Below are positions 6,359-26,610 of a stretch of 34,554 nucleotides of DNA, piece by piece; positions within the stretch are counted from its first letter, which is position 1; each line of letters begins with the position of its first letter. This DNA comes from a phage, in assembly GCA_037431425.1 (NCBI GenBank), contig GCA_037431425.1_4129.4, one strand, 5' to 3'. The position numbers and the translations under genes were made by a program. The notes below the pieces were generated by a model. The model made no database searches. It was not told the DNA's origin and worked only from the letters and a program-made list of their open reading frames with translations.

Positions 6359-6760
6359 ATGACCTTCTCAATCACTTCCTTCGCTGACGTTTTAGTACTG
6401 GCTCGGACTTTTGGCAAAGCTGGCCTTGAGCACGCTGTAAGTAATGGTTATATGCACCCGGAATATTGCCGCATTATCGGTAGCTGCAAACGTTGGACCG
6501 TGTCCCGTAATATTGAGATTGAAAACTTCAATGATGGTAACAACGAATATACAGTTGATGCAGTATTCGAATCCGTTGATCTCGGCGGTATCTATAACAC
6601 TAACTTGAATGATGTGCGTATCGTTCGCACGGGGTTCGGTGCTTATGATGTATCTATCCGTGAAGCGATGGACAAGGGATACATTAGCAAGGATCAGTTA
6701 GCTTACATTATGCAGCAGACTAAAGAGCGTAATGAAGCACGCACTATCTTAGGTCTGTAA
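6359..6760 (+). CDS. hypothetical protein (133 aa)
   Basis: ATG 6359 after RBS AAGGAG; track start 6326 lies inside the hairpin. Confidence 0.7.
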   Translation: MTFSITSFADVLVLARTFGKAGLEHAVSNGYMHPEYCRIIGSCKRWTVSRNIEIENFNDGNNEYTVDAVFESVDLGGIYNTNLNDVRIVRTGFGAYDVSIREAMDKGYISKDQLAYIMQQTKERNEARTILGL

Positions 6761-6785
6761 GCATTACACATCACTAAACATCATA

Positions 6786-6806
6786 GGCCGCTCTCTAGCG
6801 GCCTTA
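6786..6806 (+). terminator. GC hairpin, possible weak terminator or RNA stabiliser
   Basis: GGCCGCT-ctct-AGCGGCC perfect 7-bp stem; only a short T run follows. Confidence 0.4.
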
Positions 6807-6828
6807 ACTATATCAGGAGTACATACAC

Positions 6829-7038
6829 ATGATCTATACAGTATACAGCGTTCTAGGCACTATTGCAGGTGTACACGATAACGTCGATGATACTATGAGT
6901 ACAGTACTGCAACAGGTTCCACTAAAGCCTAAGACAGTTAAGAAGATGACCGCACGACTAACCAGGGCGACGGCTGGCGTGGAAGTATGGCAGGACTACG
7001 GGGATACACAGGTAATCGTAAGCGTAACGAAGGATTAA
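6829..7038 (+). CDS. hypothetical protein (69 aa)
   Basis: ORF with RBS CAGGAGT. Confidence 0.6.
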   Translation: MIYTVYSVLGTIAGVHDNVDDTMSTVLQQVPLKPKTVKKMTARLTRATAGVEVWQDYGDTQVIVSVTKD

Positions 7039-7065
7039 TACGTAAAATGATTTAGTACTGATTCA

Positions 7066-7132
7066 GAAAAAAGTCAAGGCGTTTTTAAAATAATGCGTTA
7101 AAAAAATGCATAGGTAATCCCTTGACTTTTTT
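7066..7132. terminator. symmetric terminator-like inverted repeat with a 40-nt loop
   Basis: A6-AGTCAAGG ... CCTTGACT-T6: 8-bp stem (7072-7079 / 7120-7127) flanked by A and T tracts, potentially bidirectional. Confidence 0.4.
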
Positions 7133-7229
7133 GAAATAAAAGGGATTGGACTATGGCAAAATGCGTAGGGGGGCTAAAGTGCGGGTAACTTAGCGACTTC
7201 GATAAAGGGGTATTACGAATAAAATGTTA

Positions 7230-7257
7230 TTGACTTTTTATATAAATCGTATAAAAT
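7230..7257 (+). promoter_or_regulatory. sigma70-like promoter driving the family A array
   Basis: -35 TTGACT 7230-7235, 16-nt spacer, -10 TAAAAT 7252-7257; the only obvious promoter before 13923. Confidence 0.5.
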
Positions 7258-7287
7258 ATGATTGATAATAATTTTAAGGGAGTCCCT

Positions 7288-7485
7288 GTGCGTATTTTAA
7301 CTCAAGCAGAACACCACGAAAGACTTATCAATAACATGGCTATGATAATGTATAAGTCCCATGAACGTGGTATTGCCTATAAGCGTGAATTAGTACTGGA
7401 ACTATTCATTGGGACTAACTATCAGGAAAGGTATGTCAACGATTGGATTTGGTATTTAATTGAAGATATAACGAGTAAACTATGA
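7288..7485 (+). CDS. family A small protein
   Basis: Motif FIGTNYQERYV; GTG 7288 after RBS TAAGGGA preferred because track ATG 7258 lies upstream of the predicted transcription start. Confidence 0.6.
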   Translation: MRILTQAEHHERLINNMAMIMYKSHERGIAYKRELVLELFIGTNYQERYVNDWIWYLIEDITSKL

Positions 7486-7676
7486 TAATTTTAACTAAAG
7501 AAGAATATCAATCACTGTTACGTAAAAACTACGTAAAGATTTACAATACAGACACACACGTAGAACGAATGGAGTTATACCTTTTGATTACATTGGGAAC
7601 TAACTATCAGGAAAGATGGGTGATTCAATATATGGATACATTGAAAAATAAAATATTGTCCACGAGGAAACAATGA
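7482..7676 (+). CDS. family A small protein
   Basis: Motif TLGTNYQERWV; ATGA overlap with upstream stop. Confidence 0.7.
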   Translation: MIILTKEEYQSLLRKNYVKIYNTDTHVERMELYLLITLGTNYQERWVIQYMDTLKNKILSTRKQ

Positions 7677-7882
7677 AAACTATAACACGAACCAAATCAT
7701 TAGGTCTTATCTTGAAATACATGGACTTAATGGTGGATATCAGCAAAGACCTTCCTAAAACTGCAATTGATGTTGCAAGAGCAGAGTACCGTCTATTAGC
7801 AGTACTGAATACTAACTATCAGGATGAATATGTTGACGATTGGATTCTATCATTAAAAAAAGATATAAAGAGTAAACTATGA
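7673..7882 (+). CDS. family A small protein
   Basis: Motif LNTNYQDEYV; ATGA overlap. Confidence 0.7.
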   Translation: MKTITRTKSLGLILKYMDLMVDISKDLPKTAIDVARAEYRLLAVLNTNYQDEYVDDWILSLKKDIKSKL

Positions 7883-8091
7883 TTTTTTTAACGCCAGAAG
7901 AATATAAGAAACGTTTTAGTTCGGTCCAGATAGAAATCTTACTTATATACAATTCAAATGCAAACCTTGACTTATCAAGAGTATTAGAAAAAGATTTACT
8001 TATGGGTGCATTTTTGGATACAGACTTTCAGGAGTATTATGTAGGGGAATATTTAATTGCACTCAAGAATTACATAAAGAGCAAACTATGA
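7879..8091 (+). CDS. family A small protein
   Basis: Motif FLDTDFQEYYV; ATGA overlap. Confidence 0.7.
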   Translation: MIFLTPEEYKKRFSSVQIEILLIYNSNANLDLSRVLEKDLLMGAFLDTDFQEYYVGEYLIALKNYIKSKL

Positions 8092-8300
8092 ATATCATTA
8101 ACTCAAATCAATATACAGAACGTGTTGCGGCAAGGCAACTTGAAATCCTCACAATATATGAAGAGACTGATGATTTAAACTTAGCATTAGCATTGGAAAA
8201 TGATATACTATTGGGTGCATTCCTTGGTACTAACTATCAGGAGCATTACTTGAATGAGTATATAATTGTCCTTCAAAAATACATAAAGAGCAAACTATGA
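8088..8300 (+). CDS. family A small protein
   Basis: Motif FLGTNYQEHYL; close paralog of 7879..8091; ATGA overlap. Confidence 0.7.
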   Translation: MNIINSNQYTERVAARQLEILTIYEETDDLNLALALENDILLGAFLGTNYQEHYLNEYIIVLQKYIKSKL

Positions 8301-8554
8301 AACACATAACTGATGATGAACATGAAACTATAATTCGTAAACTAACCCCCATCACAAGGATAGTCTACGGTGATCCCAGCCTCACATGGAACCAAATGCG
8401 AGCTAAAGTTAATGAGATATGGTTGCTGTACTTTATGGGGACTCAATATCAAGATAAGTTTTGCACAGAATATATCGAACAATTAATGAATGTTATACAG
8501 GATAAACTAAATGAACGAATTGTGGAAAAATATGAAAACTTTATCAAGCATTGA
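8297..8554 (+). CDS. family A small protein (C-terminally extended)
   Basis: Motif FMGTQYQDKF; usual stop after the DKL ending is absent, so the ORF reads 13 codons into the next gene. Confidence 0.65.
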   Translation: MKHITDDEHETIIRKLTPITRIVYGDPSLTWNQMRAKVNEIWLLYFMGTQYQDKFCTEYIEQLMNVIQDKLNERIVEKYENFIKH

Positions 8555-8783
8555 GTATCAGACTGCCCTCTTCTCTCTTCTAAACACCCTCCGCACGAAC
8601 AATAAACTTTATAATTCCCGTGAAGCTGATATTGTCAACGCTGATGTATATCTTAATAAATTTATAGGAACTAACTATCAAGAACTGTTTGTTTTACGAT
8701 ATATCTCTGCATTAAGAAACGAAATATCAGATAAAACCCGACAAGCCAGAAGAGAATGGAAGAAACAATGCGACACAGACTAA
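8511..8783 (+). CDS. family A small protein
   Basis: Motif FIGTNYQELFV; start lies within the 3' end of the previous ORF. Confidence 0.6.
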   Translation: MNELWKNMKTLSSIEYQTALFSLLNTLRTNNKLYNSREADIVNADVYLNKFIGTNYQELFVLRYISALRNEISDKTRQARREWKKQCDTD

Positions 8784-9019
8784 ATCACAAAATGTATTGT
8801 AAACTATTACAGGAACTGGCACAGAAACACTATAATACAATATCTTCCATATTACCCTATGATATCATGCGTTTAATTCATAGTGAGGCAGAGATGTTAG
8901 TACTGATGACCGGTACTGATAAAACAGCAATCACCAGATCGATAGAGCAATATATTGATGCACACTGTCAATGTATTAGAACTGAGATATGGAGGCGAGT
9001 AAATGAAAGTACTGAATGA
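8756..9019 (+). CDS. family A small protein (degenerate motif)
   Basis: Motif position reads LMTGTDK; start uncertain (ATG 8756 or 8768). Confidence 0.55.
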   Translation: MEETMRHRLNHKMYCKLLQELAQKHYNTISSILPYDIMRLIHSEAEMLVLMTGTDKTAITRSIEQYIDAHCQCIRTEIWRRVNESTE

Positions 9020-9218
9020 GTATCAGTATCATTGGAGGTTACAAGCTATAAGAGGGAAAGTTGTTAGTATTTCTTTAGACAAGTCTATTGCACAAGAGGA
9101 CAAATGTGTTATAATAGCTGAAATGAAGTTGGGTGTATTTGTAGGAACAAACTATCAAAACATCTACACTGACGTATTATTAAGTGCCTTACGCAACAAG
9201 GTGTTATCCAGAGAATGA
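9003..9218 (+). CDS. family A small protein
   Basis: Motif FVGTNYQNIY. Confidence 0.65.
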   Translation: MKVLNEYQYHWRLQAIRGKVVSISLDKSIAQEDKCVIIAEMKLGVFVGTNYQNIYTDVLLSALRNKVLSRE

Positions 9219-9433
9219 GAAAATTAATAGGTTACGAATATGTTAAGCTTCTAAAAACCTGTAGTAGTAGCAGGGTAAAGATTCAATCTGATAAGAGTAT
9301 TCCTGTTGATCTAAAGCACGCAATGATGGCTGAACTTTATGTAGGTGCACTATTGGGGACAAACTATCAACAAATGTATGTAGACCTATGGGTTGACGCT
9401 CTACTGAAAGAGGTCCAAAGTAAATGCAAATGA
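9215..9433 (+). CDS. family A small protein
   Basis: Motif LLGTNYQQMYV; ATGA overlap. Confidence 0.7.
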   Translation: MRKLIGYEYVKLLKTCSSSRVKIQSDKSIPVDLKHAMMAELYVGALLGTNYQQMYVDLWVDALLKEVQSKCK

Positions 9434-9642
9434 TTCATTTAAGTAAAGATGAATATTATGTTCGTCTTGCAAAAACTTATCCAGCACGTAACGCCGTTTA
9501 TAATAGTAACATTATTGAACGCTCAAAGAAGTTGATTGTAGTAAATGAGATTAAGATGCTTTCAGTCTTAGGAACAAACTATCAAGAGAATGCTGTACTG
9601 ATGTTAATTGATGCCCTCCAGAGAGAGATACAAAGTAAATGA
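9430..9642 (+). CDS. family A small protein
   Basis: Motif VLGTNYQENAV; ATGA-overlap start chosen (track ATG 9424 also possible). Confidence 0.65.
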   Translation: MIHLSKDEYYVRLAKTYPARNAVYNSNIIERSKKLIVVNEIKMLSVLGTNYQENAVLMLIDALQREIQSK

Positions 9643-9878
9643 TTAATTTATCTTTCCATGAATATCAAAAACGTTTAAATGCATCAAGGGATATAAGGAT
9701 TCAAATCTTCAATAACAAAAAATTGAAACCTGACACCAGAAGAATCAAAATAATAGAAGCAGAGTTATGTAACTTCCTGGGGACGAACCATCAGGAAGGT
9801 AAGATAAAAAACTATCTTAGAGAACTCATGATTTGTATCGAAAATAAATGTGATGCTTTGGAGAATAAAAATGATTAA
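9639..9878 (+). CDS. family A small protein
   Basis: Motif FLGTNHQEGKI; ATGA overlap. Confidence 0.7.
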   Translation: MINLSFHEYQKRLNASRDIRIQIFNNKKLKPDTRRIKIIEAELCNFLGTNHQEGKIKNYLRELMICIENKCDALENKND

Positions 9879-10116
9879 ATTATCTCAAGCAAAATATAAA
9901 GAACGCCTGGTGAAAATTGCACCTAGACTTAATGAAATCCATCACGGAGAAGTCATTAAACACGGAAATAAGATGATTATGAAACTTGAGTTAAAGGTGG
10001 GTGCATTCATAGGAACAAACTATCAGGAGTATTATGTAGATGAATACATAATCGCACTTAAGAGATACATTGGAAGAAAACTATATCTACAAACTAAAGA
10101 ATTGTATTGCAAATAA
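9871..10116 (+). CDS. family A small protein
   Basis: Motif FIGTNYQEYYV; ATG 9871 (MIKLSQAKY) preferred over track start 9850. Confidence 0.65.
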   Translation: MIKLSQAKYKERLVKIAPRLNEIHHGEVIKHGNKMIMKLELKVGAFIGTNYQEYYVDEYIIALKRYIGRKLYLQTKELYCK

Positions 10117-10133
10117 ATGCAAGGATAATGAAT

Positions 10134-10397
10134 ATGAAAATGATCAATTTAAGTAAAGATGAATATACCGAGCGTATGACAAAAATTATGCACAAACGTA
10201 ATACAATCTATCACAACCAAAAAATTCAACACAGTAAGAAAATGATTATGATGCGTGAGTTAAAGATGGGTGTATTCTTGGGAACAAACTATCAAGAGCC
10301 AGAAGTAAATCGATTAATTGCTGAGTTACTAATGGAAATCAAAGGTAAGCTGTACTTTTATCAAATGACCCGACCACTGAGGTGTACTGAACGATGA
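10134..10397 (+). CDS. family A small protein
   Basis: Motif FLGTNYQEPEV; ATG 10134 after RBS AAGGA; track start 10107 is TTG. Confidence 0.65.
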   Translation: MKMINLSKDEYTERMTKIMHKRNTIYHNQKIQHSKKMIMMRELKMGVFLGTNYQEPEVNRLIAELLMEIKGKLYFYQMTRPLRCTER

Positions 10398-10645
10398 GTA
10401 CTATGAATAAAATTAATAACATCAGATTATCAGAAAGATTTGATAGAATTGGTGAAGCCAGTAGAAGATACAATAGGGAATATGGTCATTTAAGCTTTTC
10501 TTTGGAAAAGAGATATGAACTTGAAGCAGAGTTTAAAATGCAGAGTCTCTTAGGTACACAGTACCAAGATCATTATGTAGAAAATTGGATTTCACTTCTA
10601 ATCCAATCAATTTATGTAAGGAGTATTAAATGCAAAATGGAATGA
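10394..10645 (+). CDS. family A small protein
   Basis: Motif LLGTQYQDHYV; ATGA overlap. Confidence 0.7.
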   Translation: MSTMNKINNIRLSERFDRIGEASRRYNREYGHLSFSLEKRYELEAEFKMQSLLGTQYQDHYVENWISLLIQSIYVRSIKCKME

Positions 10646-10860
10646 TATACTTAACCAACGAAGAATTTCAAGAAAAAATGATTAAATCAGGTAAGATTAC
10701 TCTTGAACATATACCAAATCAATCAGTATATGAAGTAGCAGCGAATGTATTGTTTCAGAAGCTACCGTACTTTCTGGGAACAGATAAACAAGAATTTTTG
10801 GTACAAAATATGATTGAGCATCTTCTAATGAGTATTAGGGAAAAAGTAAATGCAACATGA
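10642..10860 (+). CDS. family A small protein
   Basis: Motif FLGTDKQEFLV; ATGA-overlap start (track 10630 possible). Confidence 0.65.
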   Translation: MIYLTNEEFQEKMIKSGKITLEHIPNQSVYEVAANVLFQKLPYFLGTDKQEFLVQNMIEHLLMSIREKVNAT

Positions 10861-11110
10861 AATTATATACTTAACACATGATGAGTTAAAAGAAAGACTA
10901 GATAAATCCAAAAGACTTACAAATCAACTTCCTCACAACCCAAACCAAACCCCAGCGGAAAGGAGTGCAGAAGTTTTATTCCAGTCTTTGCCATACCTTC
11001 TTGGAACTGATAGGCAGGAGTATCACGTTGAACGTATAATTAAATATCTTAAAATTACTATTCAGGAAAAGATATATGAACATCAATATAAAAATCTTGA
11101 CGGTCAATGA
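10850..11110 (+). CDS. family A small protein
   Basis: Motif LLGTDRQEYHV; close paralog of 10642..10860. Confidence 0.65.
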   Translation: MQHEIIYLTHDELKERLDKSKRLTNQLPHNPNQTPAERSAEVLFQSLPYLLGTDRQEYHVERIIKYLKITIQEKIYEHQYKNLDGQ

Positions 11111-11327
11111 ATATCATAATATTATAATGAAGACTAATAGTGCAATTTCTAAAAAATCAAATCCAAAATACATACTGGAGCACACATTTGAAGAACGTCA
11201 ATTAGCTTTAGTTGAAGCAAAACTTCTTGCACTCCTAGGAACAAACTATCAAGAAGAGTACGTTAGAAAACTAATATACCTTTTAACTAAACACATCAGG
11301 AAAAGAAATTCAGTACTTGACCGATGA
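11076..11327 (+). CDS. family A small protein
   Basis: Motif LLGTNYQEEYV; 35-nt overlap with previous ORF. Confidence 0.6.
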   Translation: MNINIKILTVNEYHNIIMKTNSAISKKSNPKYILEHTFEERQLALVEAKLLALLGTNYQEEYVRKLIYLLTKHIRKRNSVLDR

Positions 11328-11517
11328 CGAATACGGTGTTATCATCCTTGATGTTATCAATAAAGAATACCACAGGAAACAACGTTACGCTTGTTATGAA
11401 GATAAGCAACTTTCTATAGCTGAACAACAATTAGTTCATTTATTAGGAACAAACTATCAAGAACAATGCACTGAACGTTACCTGTATCTTCTGTCGAGGA
11501 AAGCACAAAGATTATGA
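11317..11517 (+). CDS. family A small protein (non-ATG start)
   Basis: Motif LLGTNYQEQCT; the only in-frame start is TTG 11317. Confidence 0.5.
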   Translation: MTDDEYGVIILDVINKEYHRKQRYACYEDKQLSIAEQQLVHLLGTNYQEQCTERYLYLLSRKAQRL

Positions 11518-11729
11518 AAATTTTAAGCCACAGTGAACAAACAGAATTGTTAATCTTTAATACAAGTAAATTCTTAAACATAACATTGTCTGATATAGAT
11601 GAGGATGAAAAAGAGTTACTTAGAGCAGATTTAAGAGTTCTTTTATATATTGGAACTAACTTCCAAGAGCAATTCGTCGAGGACTACATCGATGAACTAA
11701 AGTCTGCTATCCAACGGAAATACAAATGA
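11514..11729 (+). CDS. family A small protein
   Basis: Motif YIGTNFQEQFV; ATGA overlap. Confidence 0.7.
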   Translation: MKILSHSEQTELLIFNTSKFLNITLSDIDEDEKELLRADLRVLLYIGTNFQEQFVEDYIDELKSAIQRKYK

Positions 11730-11971
11730 AAATTCTTTCAAGTTCTGAATACCACGAACTATTAAGTAGTTTAATTCTAAAGTTGTTTATAACAAAAAGT
11801 ACAAAATTACCGGATGAAGAAGTACGTATTCTAGTAAGTGAAGTATATGTTAAAGCTACACTAGGAACTAATTATCAAGAATGTAATATTAATGATTATA
11901 TCAATGATCTAAAAAGGTATATACAAAACAAATGCGAATCATTACCGAAACAGAATACCGAACAATCATAA
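11726..11971 (+). CDS. family A small protein
   Basis: Motif TLGTNYQECNI; ATGA overlap. Confidence 0.7.
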   Translation: MKILSSSEYHELLSSLILKLFITKSTKLPDEEVRILVSEVYVKATLGTNYQECNINDYINDLKRYIQNKCESLPKQNTEQS

Positions 11972-12159
11972 ATGGACTGTTTTTGAAGTTATTTGCCATT
12001 AACACATCAAAACTACCAGATACGGATAAAATTATTAAGTTAAATGAAATCTACGTTCAAGCAACTCTAGGAACTAACTATCAAGAAGCCAATGTTTATA
12101 ATTACATTAATACACTTAAACGAGAGATTGAACTAAAATGCCAATACACAAACCCCTAG
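11932..12159 (+). CDS. family A small protein
   Basis: Motif TLGTNYQEANV; close paralog of 11726..11971. Confidence 0.65.
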   Translation: MRIITETEYRTIINGLFLKLFAINTSKLPDTDKIIKLNEIYVQATLGTNYQEANVYNYINTLKREIELKCQYTNP

Positions 12160-12359
12160 GAACAGCAGAATACATTGAACTAATGGCAGCAAACTTCTCA
12201 TCCTTTAAGAAACTGATGCAAGAATCAAATAATGATTTAGAATATCATATCAAAAGTTCAGATTTAAGATTGCTACTCACTCTAGGAACAGACAGTCAGT
12301 ACAAATTCGTACAGGAACATATTAGAGCACTTTTAAATGGCATCAGGGCTAAACTATGA
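12138..12359 (+). CDS. family A small protein
   Basis: Motif TLGTDSQYKFV. Confidence 0.65.
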   Translation: MPIHKPLGTAEYIELMAANFSSFKKLMQESNNDLEYHIKSSDLRLLLTLGTDSQYKFVQEHIRALLNGIRAKL

Positions 12360-12571
12360 AGGAAATATCAAACCAAGAGTACTTGGCACTATTCAGAAAA
12401 AATAGTCAAGAATTTTTGAATATTGATACAAGGACTGATATAAGTGAACTTGAAAAAAATCTTTTGCGTTCAGAGATGATAGTACTGACACTCTTAGGAA
12501 CACAACATCAAGAGAGAACTGTTGATTCATATATTGAGATTCTTAAGAAGCTTATACAGGAAAAACTATGA
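12356..12571 (+). CDS. family A small protein
   Basis: Motif LLGTQHQERTV; ATGA overlap. Confidence 0.7.
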   Translation: MKEISNQEYLALFRKNSQEFLNIDTRTDISELEKNLLRSEMIVLTLLGTQHQERTVDSYIEILKKLIQEKL

Positions 12572-12789
12572 GAATCATAACACAACAAGATATGTTTAAG
12601 TTAGCAAGAGATTATACACCTGAATTTAATGCTATAGTATTAAAAAGTTACGATGACCCTTATACACAAGATGTACACTACAATGAATTATGGGTGTATA
12701 TACTTTTAGGTACAAATTATCAAGAGCAAGCAATACAGAGGTATTTGTTAGCTTTACGTGATGCTACTGCTAATGGAGTGATTGTTTAA
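12568..12789 (+). CDS. family A small protein
   Basis: Motif LLGTNYQEQAI; ATGA overlap. Confidence 0.7.
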   Translation: MRIITQQDMFKLARDYTPEFNAIVLKSYDDPYTQDVHYNELWVYILLGTNYQEQAIQRYLLALRDATANGVIV

Positions 12790-12790
12790 T

Positions 12791-13033
12791 ATGAAAGTAC
12801 TATCTGAATTACAAATGGGACAGAGATTTAATAAGTACTATCATTTACTGAAACCTATACAGAGGATTAAATGTTCTTATGATGAGAAACAGGTTTTAAT
12901 TTATGAGCACAAGTTCTTTGTATCATTAGGTACGAATCATCAAGAGTACTATTTGAAGTTGTACTTGATTACATTAATAGATTTAATTCACTATAAAACC
13001 AAACAAGCTAATAAAGAGAAATATGAAAACTAA
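12791..13033 (+). CDS. family A small protein
   Basis: Motif SLGTNHQEYYL; ATG 12791 directly after upstream TAA (track start 12782 is TTG). Confidence 0.65.
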   Translation: MKVLSELQMGQRFNKYYHLLKPIQRIKCSYDEKQVLIYEHKFFVSLGTNHQEYYLKLYLITLIDLIHYKTKQANKEKYEN

Positions 13034-13367
13034 TATACAACTCAAGGTGTATAAATCCTATGAACATATATATATCAAAAGTAGTCTATGTAGAGATGTA
13101 ATGGACTACAAGGGTAAGCCATTCACAATTACGTATGATTCTTATATTAATGATTTATATATATCATTTGTTAATTACGAAAATAAAATATACAAGCACG
13201 TTGATATTAAAGATTTAAGTACTTTATCACCAGAGGAATACTTTCAAGAATCATTAGTATGGGATTTAGAATTTCCTATGCCATTAGTACATAAAATGAT
13301 AGTACTAATGAAAGAAGCTAAACAGAAGCCTAATGGTGATTATGAAGAACACATTATTGAGTACTAA
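13023..13367 (+). CDS. family B protein
   Basis: Motif LSPEEYFQESLVWD; first family B member, embedded in the family A array. Confidence 0.65.
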   Translation: MKTNIQLKVYKSYEHIYIKSSLCRDVMDYKGKPFTITYDSYINDLYISFVNYENKIYKHVDIKDLSTLSPEEYFQESLVWDLEFPMPLVHKMIVLMKEAKQKPNGDYEEHIIEY

Positions 13368-13370
13368 ACA

Positions 13371-13595
13371 ATGAAAATATTATCATACGAAGATTACCGC
13401 AAGCTTCGCGGTATTTTGCGACCAGAAATTCAAAGAATTAATTCTCTTCCTATATCTAATGCAGAATGTTCAGTACTGAAAGATGAGTTAATATTAAAAC
13501 ACACAGTAGGAACTAACTATCAAGCTGATAGTGTTCGATATCTAATTTGGGGATTAATATGCATAGTAAAGGAAAAACAAGCTCAAGTACTGTGA
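13371..13595 (+). CDS. family A small protein
   Basis: Motif TVGTNYQADSV. Confidence 0.65.
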   Translation: MKILSYEDYRKLRGILRPEIQRINSLPISNAECSVLKDELILKHTVGTNYQADSVRYLIWGLICIVKEKQAQVL

Positions 13596-13921
13596 CAATC
13601 GAAGTGAATTCTATTAATGCTGGTAATGCAGTAGATAAGTTCTTTATTGCTCAAGGATACAGGAAAGATATTCATCAATATTGTTCAGTATATGGGGAGT
13701 ACAATAGTACTGAAGATATAATTTATTGGTCAACACATCAAGATTATCTAACTAAAATTGGTATTCCAGATGTTAGTACTTTATCTGAAGAAGAATACTT
13801 TCAGTACAGCTTAGTACATGATTTACCTATACCTTTAGGGTTAATTAAGGGTATGCAGGAAGAGGTTCATAAGCTTAAATCCATGAGTAAAGGTACTTTC
13901 ATTAGAACAGTGCAATACTAG
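13547..13921 (+). CDS. family B protein
   Basis: Motif LSEEEYFQYSLVHD; start uncertain (13547 or 13559). Confidence 0.6.
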   Translation: MGINMHSKGKTSSSTVTIEVNSINAGNAVDKFFIAQGYRKDIHQYCSVYGEYNSTEDIIYWSTHQDYLTKIGIPDVSTLSEEEYFQYSLVHDLPIPLGLIKGMQEEVHKLKSMSKGTFIRTVQY

Positions 13922-13922
13922 C

Positions 13923-13951
13923 TTGACAGTACTTTTCATTACTGATATAGT
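13923..13951 (+). promoter_or_regulatory. sigma70-like promoter
   Basis: -35 TTGACA 13923-13928, 17-nt spacer, -10 TATAGT 13946-13951. Confidence 0.55.
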
Positions 13952-13980: not shown

Positions 13981-14226
13981 ATGTTAAAATTTTTAAATTT
14001 CCTTATCGTCTTGTGTATTATTTTTGGGATTGCACCATTTGTATTGTATTTCATGGATTCAGATGAGATGCAGAAGATGAATTGCACAAAGACTGGACAG
14101 AGTAGAGAAGAGACGATTCTTATGCCTGTTACGGTTATTGTTAACAACATGCCCATTACAAACATGGTCCCTACCCTAACGACAAGGTGGCAGTACTCTT
14201 GTACAGACGGGGAGAGGTGGAGATGA
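13981..14226 (+). CDS. small putative membrane protein (81 aa)
   Basis: Hydrophobic N-terminal stretch LNFLIVLCIIFGIAPFVLYF consistent with one transmembrane helix; has its own promoter. Confidence 0.55.
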   Translation: MLKFLNFLIVLCIIFGIAPFVLYFMDSDEMQKMNCTKTGQSREETILMPVTVIVNNMPITNMVPTLTTRWQYSCTDGERWR

Positions 14227-14898: not shown

Positions 14899-15150
14899 AT
14901 GTACAAAAAAATAAACCGTTATTTGTATGCATCAAAGTACAGGGATTTTTGTTTACAAGGGGGTGAGGACGATTTCGGTCTGAGGCTATCGGAATTTAAT
15001 ATGTTATTTTATCTTGGTACATCCGTACAAGAAGAAATGGTACAGAAATTTCTCAATAACCTTGTACAAAAAATTAATATTCAAATTATGATGCATAAAT
15101 TACAGAATGAGATAAATGAATATGAATCTAGAAATAGTTCAGGATCTTAA
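14899..15150 (+). CDS. family A-like small protein (outlier inside family B region)
   Basis: Motif YLGTSVQEEMV; RBS AAGGAG. Confidence 0.65.
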   Translation: MYKKINRYLYASKYRDFCLQGGEDDFGLRLSEFNMLFYLGTSVQEEMVQKFLNNLVQKINIQIMMHKLQNEINEYESRNSSGS

Positions 15151-20933: not shown

Positions 20934-21073
20934 AGACGTTTCGTATGATGTATTCAAACGTACAATAAAACAATACTATATAACTTTTTATAATTGATAT
21001 TTTTTAAAAAATACACAATCACAACGTGCTCCTTTTATTGGAATTTACCTTATTAATTATAGTTGAGGGGAAG

Positions 21074-25722: not shown

Positions 25723-26245
25723 CATTAATGATTATGATGCATTACAAGATTTATCAAAAAAGATTCGCACTATCGTACCAGTACTGAAGAAATGCAGTAC
25801 TGGATTAATCGATCCTAGTACAGTTATTAGTGAGAAGTACAATTTTCATAAACTGTTACAAGGGAATGGTGCATTCCAGAAGTGTGAGATACGTGAGACA
25901 CACGTAATTGATACATCATTGTTTTCTATTGGTGCACCTGTGTCGAATAATACTATTTTCCTAGACAACGCTGGAAATATTCAACAATTAACATTTAAGA
26001 AAAGGAAAAAGAACAATAACATTGGTGTGTATGCGATGAAGTGGGGTCAACCTGATTTGAAGCGTGAAATTCACATCCCTAAGTACAATTACAATGCATT
26101 TGACGAACAGTGTTTTCAACTATCGTGTACTGACCCTGACTATGCTATCATTCAGTTCTATATGGAATTGCAGATTGCATTTAACAGTAATTTGTATATT
26201 AACTTATTGGCGATGAACATCGATGAAGTATTCAAAAACATTTAA
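25709..26245 (+). CDS. family B-like protein (non-ATG start)
   Basis: Motif FDEQCFQLSCTDPD; only in-frame start is TTG 25709, 8 nt after RBS GAAGAGG. Confidence 0.5.
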   Translation: MRKININDYDALQDLSKKIRTIVPVLKKCSTGLIDPSTVISEKYNFHKLLQGNGAFQKCEIRETHVIDTSLFSIGAPVSNNTIFLDNAGNIQQLTFKKRKKNNNIGVYAMKWGQPDLKREIHIPKYNYNAFDEQCFQLSCTDPDYAIIQFYMELQIAFNSNLYINLLAMNIDEVFKNI

Positions 26246-26441
26246 TCGAATTGAATACATGAGAACTGTGAGTGCAGTGTGGGACATATGGTTCACTACT
26301 AAACCAAAAATGGATTACCATGACTTTAAGCTATTGTTCTTCGTTGGCTCTAACAAACAGGATGTTGCAATGAAGGGTTATATTCAGCACTTACAGGAAC
26401 TAATCCAGAAGAGAATATATGAAAATAATAGACCAAGATGA
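26223..26441 (+). CDS. family A-like small protein (outlier)
   Basis: Motif FVGSNKQDVAM in the family A C-terminal position. Confidence 0.55.
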   Translation: MKYSKTFNRIEYMRTVSAVWDIWFTTKPKMDYHDFKLLFFVGSNKQDVAMKGYIQHLQELIQKRIYENNRPR

Positions 26442-26610
26442 TATTGCTAAACTATTCAATATATATTCTTCTAAAATGATGCAAATCGACTCATATAGTA
26501 CTGAATTCAAAGAATTAAAAGTACTGATGTATTTGGGTACACAACATCAGGAACAAGTTGTTAAAGAATATATTGATTCATTACAGAAGGATATACGTTA
26601 TGTACAATGA
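26419..26610 (+). CDS. family A small protein (outlier)
   Basis: Motif YLGTQHQEQVV. Confidence 0.6.
   Translation: MKIIDQDDIAKLFNIYSSKMMQIDSYSTEFKELKVLMYLGTQHQEQVVKEYIDSLQKDIRYVQ

Follow-up and report, generated by a model that had tools for sequence, protein, structure and literature searches.

Multigene families lying by terminal repeats are known in large eukaryotic viruses, among which the MGF100, MGF110, MGF360 and MGF505 multigene families (MGF) of African swine fever virus (ASFV) and the terminal host-range families of poxviruses, and have documented roles in host range and immune evasion. In bacteriophages, the terminal-redundancy genes of SPO1, the pre-early genes of T5 and the terminal-repeat "Tre" genes of Kayviruses form clusters of small proteins, mostly of unknown function, with host-type promoters. 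The locus described here, a tandem array of small paralogous genes called family A, occupies positions 7230-13595 of contig GCA_037431425.1_4129.4, a stretch of 34,554 nt hereafter referred to as the window. By sequence match, the window belongs to a jumbo coliphage of the genus Asteriusvirus, in the PBECO4/121Q/phAPEC6 group.

The existence of the array was already known. A tandem array of >30 genes in 121Q was reported in one sentence by Hua et al. 2017 (PMC5646251), and one sentence of Wagemans et al. 2020 (PMC7247149) echoed the point for phAPEC6. The genus is the same and the region almost certainly so, but the two mentions carry no coordinates, motif, family definition, structure, repeat position or function, and either family A or the adjacent, larger family B may have been meant; the wording "very similar" does not suit family A, in which mean paralog identity is 26% at the protein level. 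About 10% of the RaK2 proteins were described as paralogues in the RaK2 paper. Family A sequences have also been clustered in phrog_4148 and phrog_28039, which are automatic clusters without annotation, category or structure. In Bacillus phage G a lineage-specific expansion of ~35 Zn-ribbon proteins has been described (Iyer et al. 2021, PMC7824862), in a work in which family A was not analysed. New elements are the definition of the family and of its motif and a confidently predicted fold for which PDB and BFVD hold no specific match; new, too, are the location of the array at the edge of the repeat, the anatomy of its operon, the restriction of the family to one clade, the way in which selection acts on it and the fixation of synonymous sites.

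A family of thirty small paralogs

Family A includes 30 genes in the window, all on the + strand: 26 are contiguous (7288-13033), one starts at 13371, and three outliers start at 14899, 26223 and 26419. A profile hidden Markov model (HMM) was derived from the 27 members at 7258-13595 and run against all six-frame open reading frames (ORFs) of the window. The 27 array members scored between E 9.5e-29 and 9e-19, the outliers were recovered too (26419, E 1e-14; 26223, E 2.9e-7; 14899, E 1.9e-6), and the best-scoring non-member stood at E 0.46. The array is genuine, far beyond chance. The initial annotation, made from the sequence alone, had proposed such a + strand family of thirty ~70-aa paralogs, and all 30 genes are indeed present and set apart from the other ORFs by the HMM. 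The three outliers also hold, while the run of 27 contiguous members has to be shortened to 26, as a family B gene (13023-13367) stands before the 27th.

The motif [LIVMFT]-G-[TS]-x-x-Q occurs in 27 of the 30 members and is absent from all 96 other ORFs with a length of 55 aa or more, which total 10,391 residues. Its first residue stands 24-45 residues ahead of the C-terminus, with a mode of 25, so that the positional conservation claimed for it is borne out. Conservation of at least 90% is reached by the G, T and Q residues and by one Leu of the last helix. The window consensus reads MKILTQDEY...E-L-x-L-x-x-L-G-T-N-Y-Q-E-x-x-V-x-x-Y-I-x-x-L-x-x-x-I-x-x-K, with M-K-I-L-T-x-x-E-Y at the N-terminus. 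The sequence L-G-T-N-Y-Q-E, taken at first as the family motif, stands as part of this consensus but is too narrow for the wider family, where G-[TS]-x-x-Q is the sole invariant part; N-Y, within GTNYQ, is a feature of Asteriusvirus arrays alone.

The products, ~70 aa long (about 8 kDa), are soluble and devoid of transmembrane segments. Isoelectric points (pI) span 4.5-9.8; 12 members are acidic and 15 basic. Each member carries 0-3 Cys, none in a conserved column. Member 9424 was modelled with AlphaFold2 using the 30 paralogs as alignment. The model has four helices (residues 8-17, 19-26, 33-47 and 54-71), with a predicted local distance difference test score (pLDDT) of 97.7 and a predicted template modelling score (pTM) of 0.83. 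A beta-bridge links residue 4, in the N-terminal M-x-I-L segment, to Thr51 in the G-T loop, and the two conserved sequence blocks therefore meet in space. Conserved hydrophobics on helices 3 and 4 are spaced i, i+3/4, i+7, consistent with a core stripe in the model. As part of the explanation favoured below, it is tentatively proposed that all members fold on one compact four-helix scaffold, the remaining surface of which has widely diverged.

The model has no specific structural relative in PDB or BFVD. In Pfam-A the best score for the 30 members was E 0.0012, each family being matched by a single member and the gathering score never being reached; the 22 divergent members had no match in Pfam, and NCBIfam gave nothing better than E 0.0044. 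Profiles of anti-phage defence systems (PADLOC-DB) scored at best E 0.0015, with single members only. The view that the family matches no characterised one thus holds up in profile and structure comparisons, the exception being PHROG clusters to which no function has been assigned: phrog_4148 is matched by 29 of the 30 members (best E 4.8e-27; 9424 covers positions 1-70 of the 74 of the profile), phrog_28039 by 15 of the 30 (best E 3.5e-30). Mass spectrometry identified 62 proteins in the phAPEC6 virion; none comes from gp467c-gp489c, the orthologous array, although small proteins can escape detection.

The array and its surroundings are laid out as follows (coordinates of the window, strand, feature; E values refer to the family A HMM):

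7040-7229, +, intergenic region with the inner boundary of the left direct terminal repeat at ~7190 (fEgEco12 alignment)
7230-7257, +, predicted sigma70-like promoter TTGACT-16-TAAAAT (10/12 match; conserved in ph0011 and fEgEco12)
7277-7290, +, Shine-Dalgarno AAGGGAG and probable GTG start (7288) of the first gene (fEgEco12 comparison)
7288-7485, +, member 1 (E 6.1e-22; longest ORF from 7258, within the promoter)
7482-7676, +, member 2 (E 2e-20; ATGA junction)
7673-7882, +, member 3, motif VLNTNYQ (E 3.4e-22; ATGA junction)
7879-8091, +, member 4, motif FLDTDFQ (E 9.2e-24; ATGA junction)
8088-8300, +, member 5 (E 3e-22; ATGA junction)
8297-8554, +, member 6 (E 5.7e-27; ph0011 has two extra genes exactly at the 5' junction)
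8532-8783, +, member 7 (E 4.6e-22; longest ORF from 8511)
8768-9019, +, member 8, MTGTDKT, 6-residue insertion past the motif (E 9.1e-19; most divergent of the contiguous set)
9003-9218, +, member 9 (E 3.4e-24)
9215-9433, +, member 10 (E 7.5e-27; ATGA junction)
9424-9642, +, member 11 (E 4.9e-26; alternative start 9430; structure predicted, AlphaFold2 pLDDT 97.7)
9639-9878, +, member 12 (E 1.3e-25; ATGA junction)
9871-10116, +, member 13 (E 2.1e-28; longest ORF from 9850; ortholog absent from ph0011)
10140-10397, +, member 14 (E 9.5e-29; longest ORF from 10107)
10394-10645, +, member 15 (E 6.9e-21)
10630-10860, +, member 16, motif FLGTDKQ (E 9e-21; alternative start 10642)
10850-11110, +, member 17, motif LLGTDRQ (E 5.4e-23)
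11076-11327, +, member 18 (E 8.8e-22)
11317-11517, +, member 19, TTG start, without the M-x-I-L N-terminus (E 1.3e-19)
11514-11729, +, member 20 (E 1.1e-25; ATGA junction)
11726-11971, +, member 21 (E 8.6e-28; closest paralog 11932, 51%)
11932-12159, +, member 22 (E 2.4e-25)
12138-12359, +, member 23, motif TLGTDSQ (E 2.4e-20)
12356-12571, +, member 24 (E 2.8e-24; ATGA junction)
12568-12789, +, member 25 (E 2.6e-23; ATGA junction)
12791-13033, +, member 26, end of the strictly contiguous run (E 3.4e-22; longest ORF from 12782)
13023-13367, +, family B gene interrupting the array, motif S-P-E-E-Y-F-Q-E-S-L-V, probably same transcription unit (family B HMM)
13371-13595, +, member 27 (E 4.9e-22; ortholog identity 99% in fEgEco12, 77% in ph0011)
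13547-13921, +, family B gene closing the array unit
13923-13951, +, next strong sigma70-like promoter, TTGACA-17-TATAGT with TG (11/12 match; probable 3' limit of the array unit)
14899-15150, +, family A outlier in the family B region, motif YLGTSVQE (E 1.9e-6)
26223-26441, +, family A outlier, motif FVGSNKQD (E 2.9e-7)
26419-26610, +, family A outlier, motif YLGTQHQE (E 1e-14)

The array unit at the terminal-repeat boundary

The terminal repeat of fEgEco12 measures 20,993 bp, as verified by PhageTerm and restriction digests (PMC13070987). In the alignment, position 20,993 of the fEgEco12 record corresponds to window position ~7190, which marks the inner boundary of the left direct terminal repeat. 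Here the G+C fraction, 0.37-0.43 on the repeat side, drops to 0.30-0.33. Just upstream of the boundary lies a perfect inverted repeat of 13 nt (AAAAAAGTCAAGG / CCTTGACTTTTTT; 7067-7079 / 7120-7132), which could be linked to termination or to the packaging cut. The array unit begins ~40 bp inside the unique DNA, at TTGACT-16-TAAAAT, the only good promoter candidate ahead of the array, and, to judge from the alignment, opens the unique DNA that follows the left terminal repeat. GTG 7288, preceded by AAGGGAG, is the most probable start of the first gene; fEgEco12 has ATG in its place, and gene g057 is annotated from there.

The coding fraction of the 7288-13595 interval is 100%. At 13 of the 25 junctions among the 26 contiguous genes the overlap is a 4-nt ATGA, and only three junctions have no overlap; about half of the array genes lack a recognisable Shine-Dalgarno sequence. 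No terminator-like site was found on the + strand between 7258 and 13921, before the next strong promoter-like site. A single transcript from the 7230 promoter, with translation coupled by overlaps, had been envisaged from the start, and all these features are consistent with it: the region 7230-13921 is probably read as a single polycistronic message of ~6.7 kb, in which termination and reinitiation would couple the cistrons. Scans of the window for Rfam families and tRNAs gave no hit.

The repeat side (1-7200) hosts spaced genes, with sigma70 consensus promoters, all on the + strand, in the intergenic gaps. Sigma70-like sites number 37 versus 25.5 expected; five are perfect (12/12) TTGACA-16/17-TATAAT promoters (1085, 1281, 1710, 3857 and 5412), and three match at 11/12. 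In its layout, the region looks like an immediate-early one with one promoter per gene. A near-identical hairpin, AAAGGGATTGACTCCGGTCAGTCCCTTT, with a stem of 12-13 bp and followed by GCTATTATAT, is found there in three copies (484-513, 3424-3451 and 5707-5734). The stem embeds the TTGACT of a promoter-like site with a TG-extended TATTAT, and the three hairpins may be combined terminator/promoter or regulated promoter elements. Also within the terminal repeat, a 194-aa ORF (2828-3412) is annotated in relatives as a protein kinase domain protein; the relatives are ph0011, fEgEco12 ("serine/threonine-protein kinase") and fENko-Kae01 ("putative protein kinase"), and RaK2 ORF356 has the same length and is syntenic. 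The product is a candidate early host-modifying enzyme.

At the boundary itself, an extra annotated gene separates the last terminal-repeat gene from the first family A gene both in A4 (locus L007, 620-1438, 819 nt) and in PBECO4 (locus L006, 1052-1417, 366 nt), and the region therefore varies among isolates. At the other end of the array unit, the first ORF past the 13923 promoter-like site (13981-14226) has an 81-aa product whose N-terminal segment, MLKFLNFLIVLCIIFGIAPFVLYF, is hydrophobic; it may be a small membrane protein, the first of the next transcription unit.

Evolution and distribution of the array

Adjacent paralogs are 31.2% identical versus 26.1% for non-adjacent ones (permutation p=1e-4), and therefore the family arose by tandem duplication, as initially thought. 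Duplication had also been regarded as ongoing, on the ground of near-identical gene pairs, and this part of the picture does not stand. The pairs in question, 7879/8088, 10630/10850 (10642 in the initial annotation) and 11726/11932, are 47%, 48% and 51% identical in protein sequence, respectively, the last being the closest paralog pair of all. No recent tandem repeats of gene-length period were found by Tandem Repeats Finder. Window genes have collinear positional orthologs in ph0011, fEgEco12, PBECO4, A4 and SD-15, with a mosaic identity of 44-100%. Since such orthologs occur in phages diverged by ~15% in DNA sequence, the duplications must be old.

What is ongoing is the gain and loss of whole genes, which leaves 20-29 copies per phage. 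Contiguous copies are 26 in the window, 27 in ph0011, 28 in fEgEco12, 29 in PBECO4, 20 in A4 and 27 in SD-15. Whole-gene indels that break at gene junctions account for the differences, on which grounds copy-number change through unequal crossing-over at the motif was rejected; ph0011 gene 11069, a plain ortholog of 10140 and not a hybrid, also counts against it.

Pooled over orthologs with synonymous divergence (dS) of 0.10-0.45, the ratio of nonsynonymous to synonymous substitutions (dN/dS) is 0.32-0.38 in the array, compared with 0.13-0.14 for 16 upstream genes, a ~2.5-fold difference; the estimate is a crude, pooled Nei-Gojobori one, with no site model. Reading frames are intact in every member. 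The ratio tells that array genes are real and under purifying selection, which is relaxed, as they evolve faster than their neighbours. By segment, dN/dS is lowest in the motif (0.16) and highest in the middle region (0.48); positive selection in this variable middle was considered and rejected. The idea of an arms-race locus thus retains weak support, from the faster evolution of the genes relative to the upstream ones.

Exchange among phages may have left traces as well. Compared with ph0011 (window 806-7038 versus 7200-13571), array DNA is 91-97% identical and ortholog dS is 0.10, whereas dS is 0.31 for the 16 upstream repeat genes. Single array genes switch nearest relative, as 13371, which is 99% identical to its fEgEco12 and 77% to its ph0011 ortholog. 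The pattern suggests that co-circulating Asteriusviruses have recombined, both inside the array and at or close to the repeat boundary.

Synonymous sites of the motif are unusually fixed. The motif Asn is encoded by AAC and AAT in a 17:3 ratio, against 32:84 elsewhere in the same genes (p=1.7e-6), and the motif Tyr by TAT and TAC in a 17:1 ratio, against a background of 69:41 (p=0.006); at other conserved Tyr columns codon use is that of the background. The motif codons of family A span 7404-13525. The 17-mer GGAACWAACTATCARGA has 16 matches with at most two mismatches, all on the + strand and within the array, where 0.01 would be expected. The surroundings of the motif show no conserved RNA structure (alifold energy 0.0, mean z -0.46). 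RaK2 and a metagenomic array keep the protein motif G-[TS]-x-x-Q but lack the nucleotide core. Short-tract gene conversion, a codon- or context-specific effect, or a signal acting in cis are possible sources of the AAC-TAT fixation.

Outside the window the family has a narrow range. Megablast of the 7230-13595 region matched 36 phage records, all of Escherichia or Salmonella phages, the closest being ph0011 (95% identity), with PBECO4, phAPEC6, fEgEco12 and others at 81-89%; all genes beneath the match are annotated as "hypothetical protein". An exhaustive HMMER scan of 1.84 billion cluster representatives found only 101 proteins at E <=1e-3, and the weaker hits that were fetched were short and motif-bearing in 32 cases out of 32. 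A tblastn search of the family consensus against 50,697 phage records returned all 36 Asteriusvirus records, 121Q and phAPEC6 included, and nothing else. In the phage collection, tblastn of P0173 and blastn of the L010 array gave no match, and a search for related loci starting from P0173 likewise came back empty. On the strength of these searches, family A is confined to RaK2-like jumbo phages. Klebsiella phage RaK2 has ~13 members by HMM, scattered in groups of 1-3, the first of which follows a 785-bp gap syntenic with the repeat boundary. The same layout as in the window, higher-GC spaced genes and then a contiguous array of 12 family A genes, with five scattered members, is found in a distantly related metagenomic contig of 101 kb, to which Salmonella phage Munch and Klebsiella phage fENko-Kae01 are the closest cultured phages. 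In fENko-Kae01 the array directly past the annotated repeat is family B, not family A. The clade rule is therefore a terminal repeat followed by paralog arrays, of which family A is one of several.

Some relatives are fused to C-terminal extensions, namely RaK2 ORF362 and ORF372, a 269-aa protein of EC.P1/UB and L010 14156-14557. The two RaK2 extensions share a common ~50-aa domain; that of EC.P1/UB is a 200-aa domain homologous to the free-standing RaK2 ORF380. The extensions of ORF362, ORF372 and the EC.P1 protein have no informative similarity to window ORFs. A further tandem array (family C), of ~20 genes of 59-70 aa with the motif M-x-x-K-E-Y-Y...Y-x-x-x-L-x-L-I, lies in fEgEco12 at 348,835-353,438, directly before the right terminal repeat, so that small-paralog arrays border the terminal repeat on either side. 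Common ancestry of families A and C was rejected (hhalign probability 1.3%).

Possible functions and related systems

The explanation preferred here, put forward tentatively, is that family A is an early, non-virion family in which one scaffold carries diversified surfaces, its members being one-to-one binders of host factors engaged in host takeover or counter-defence, and the repertoire being tuned by gene gain and loss. According to this view, host sigma70 RNA polymerase would transcribe the operon from the 7230 promoter soon after DNA entry, with added read-through from the promoter-rich upstream repeat. Ribosomes would move from cistron to cistron via the ATGA termination-reinitiation overlaps, and coupled translation would ensure that all paralogs are made together. 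On the scaffold, where the N-terminal strand M-x-I-L-[ST] would pair with the G-T loop between helices 3 and 4, each protein would form a 1:1 complex with its own host factor, or with a distinct allelic form of a single factor. Taken together, the paralogs would make up a repertoire for host takeover or counter-defence, whose breadth is set by whole-gene gain and loss at conserved gene junctions. The preference stems from the position and promoter context of the array, its non-virion status, the pattern of a scaffold with a variable surface, relaxed purifying selection and copy-number variation. It stems also from PA5oct, a phage reliant on host RNA polymerase, in which transcription of the terminal-repeat genes is high early in infection (PMC7318152).

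Several points weigh against this explanation. PA5oct is a distant relative, and the timing rests on analogy. The 7230 promoter is a prediction, and at 10/12 it is weaker than the promoters of the repeat. An arms race is not demonstrated, no segment having dN/dS >1. No similarity to known anti-defence, host-shutoff or toxin/antitoxin proteins was found. All paralogs share a strongly conserved polar loop, G-T-N-Y-Q-E, which is no less compatible with one common ligand or partner than with thirty different targets. Confidence is kept low because the searched literature yielded no expression, interaction or phenotype data for any member or ortholog.

The shared polar loop leads to an alternative that is unlikely but survives best. 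The N-terminal strand and the G-T-N-Y-Q loop may be the surface by which all paralogs dock, either onto a single common partner or among themselves; the paralogs would then be exchangeable subunits or adaptors of one phage or host machine, with coupled equimolar synthesis serving its assembly stoichiometry. The conserved residues are polar and are brought together in the model by the bridge between residues 4 and 51, the motif is the segment with the lowest dN/dS, and family A domains are found fused to others in RaK2 ORF362/372 and in the EC.P1 269-aa protein. ATGA coupling, here at 13 of 25 junctions, is typical for subunits of complexes. Yet the conserved loop may do no more than stabilise the fold, and the presence of 20-29 copies among viable phages is awkward for a fixed stoichiometry, as is the scattering of the ~13 RaK2 members outside any single operon.

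Less probable again is that the array is a set of weakly selected tandem duplicates whose single products matter little, largely dispensable and tolerated by a large capsid, in keeping with the genome-expansion ratchet that Hua et al. proposed for exactly the ">30-gene tandem array" of 121Q (PMC5646251). The elevated dN/dS relative to the neighbours, the variable copy number, with A4 managing on 20 genes, and a G+C content below that of the adjacent repeat would all fit. However, a dN/dS of 0.32-0.38 maintained up to dS 0.45, along with intact frames, denotes continuing purifying selection, positional orthologs are collinear in all six phages compared, and the family predates the split between Asteriusvirus and Alcyoneusvirus. 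Defined terminal repeats, unlike simple headful ends, also weaken the argument for filler DNA.

A minor possibility is that the family is a combinatorial adaptor library. The invariant patch made by the N-terminal strand and the G-[TS]-x-x-Q loop would be a common handle for docking onto a single machine of host or phage origin (a protease, a kinase or RNA polymerase, for instance), while diversified helix surfaces recruit or block about thirty targets; the AAC-TAT fixation would then reflect gene conversion keeping the handle uniform. Such a library would correspond, in a bacterial virus, to the F-box/PRANC-type or MGF-type families found in large viruses of eukaryotes.

It is quite doubtful that the proteins are nucleic-acid-binding regulators, in which helix 3, the L-G-T turn and helix 4 form a helix-turn-helix (HTH)-like unit and paralogs differ in site specificity. 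A lead, and no more, is the resemblance of LGTNYQE to VGTTQQS in the turn and recognition helix of 434 repressor. Fifteen members are basic, and the 35-copy expansion of phage G has been read as transcription factors or DNA-binding proteins (PMC7824862). Against this, the 12 acidic members, with pI down to 4.5, do not fit a uniform DNA-binding role, and helix 4 is 18 residues long and bears the hydrophobic core stripe. No Pfam or NCBIfam HTH model matches the 30 window members, nor does any Pfam model match the 22 divergent ones; for HTH proteins of the Cro/C1 and MerR/Xis types, neither the tri-helical fold, by structure comparison, nor a profile match was found.

Least probable of all is that the coding sequence carries a periodic element acting in cis, a 17-nt core GGAAC[AT]AACTATCA[AG]GA repeated every ~210 bp as a DNA or RNA signal (binding-site array, processing or recombination site), with the protein motif partly a by-product: the fixed Asn and Tyr codons and the 16 array-restricted, same-strand matches speak for it, but RNA structure is not conserved around the motif, RaK2 and the metagenomic array hold the protein motif without the core, indel breakpoints fall at gene junctions and not at the motif, and short-tract gene conversion between paralogs could yield the same pattern.

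More than 80% of the genes of RaK2-like jumbo phages have no known function, and paralog arrays beside the terminal repeat account for much of this dark matter. No entry into it is cleaner than family A, a sharply defined and confidently folded domain of ~70 aa that is confined to this clade and present in 20-30 diverged copies per genome, encoded by what is probably one operon at the front of the unique region. If the members are diversified binders of host proteins, the array would be to a phage what the host-range-determining terminal multigene families are to poxviruses and ASFV, and small inhibitors of E. coli proteins or of defence systems could readily be drawn from it. These phages are in development for therapy against avian pathogenic E. 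coli (APEC), uropathogenic E. coli (UPEC) and Salmonella, so that it is of practical value to learn whether the array governs host range. If the array is dispensable, it would provide direct evidence for the duplication-driven model of genome expansion in jumbo phages.

Comparison with described systems places the locus close to some of them in layout. The SPO1, T5 and Kayvirus modules also encode small proteins at or near long terminal repeats, have host-type promoters and are expected to be expressed first. Yet their genes are unrelated, usually have promoters of their own and reside within the repeat, a description which fits window 1-7200. The array is made up of one paralog family, lies just outside the repeat and has a single predicted 10/12 promoter, while an early module of this kind would lie inside the terminal redundancy with a strong promoter for each gene. 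The phage G expansion is likewise found in a jumbo phage, features 30-35 tandem copies of one small domain and has no proven function. It differs in host phylum, phage lineage, fold and chemistry, and no sequence relationship exists: a Zn-ribbon requires two conserved Cys/His pairs, whereas family A is all-helical and has no conserved Cys.

In layout the array also resembles the ASFV and poxvirus families. In both cases diverged tandem paralogs adjoin terminal repeats, content and copy number differ among isolates, products are non-structural and proteins evolve faster than their neighbours. Homology is missing, the host is bacterial, the proteins are far smaller, and a role in host range or immune evasion is conjecture for family A. 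As a type of locus, the array resembles the terminal multigene families of large eukaryotic viruses and the expansions of small proteins seen in other jumbo phages; by sequence and fold it falls within none of these groups.

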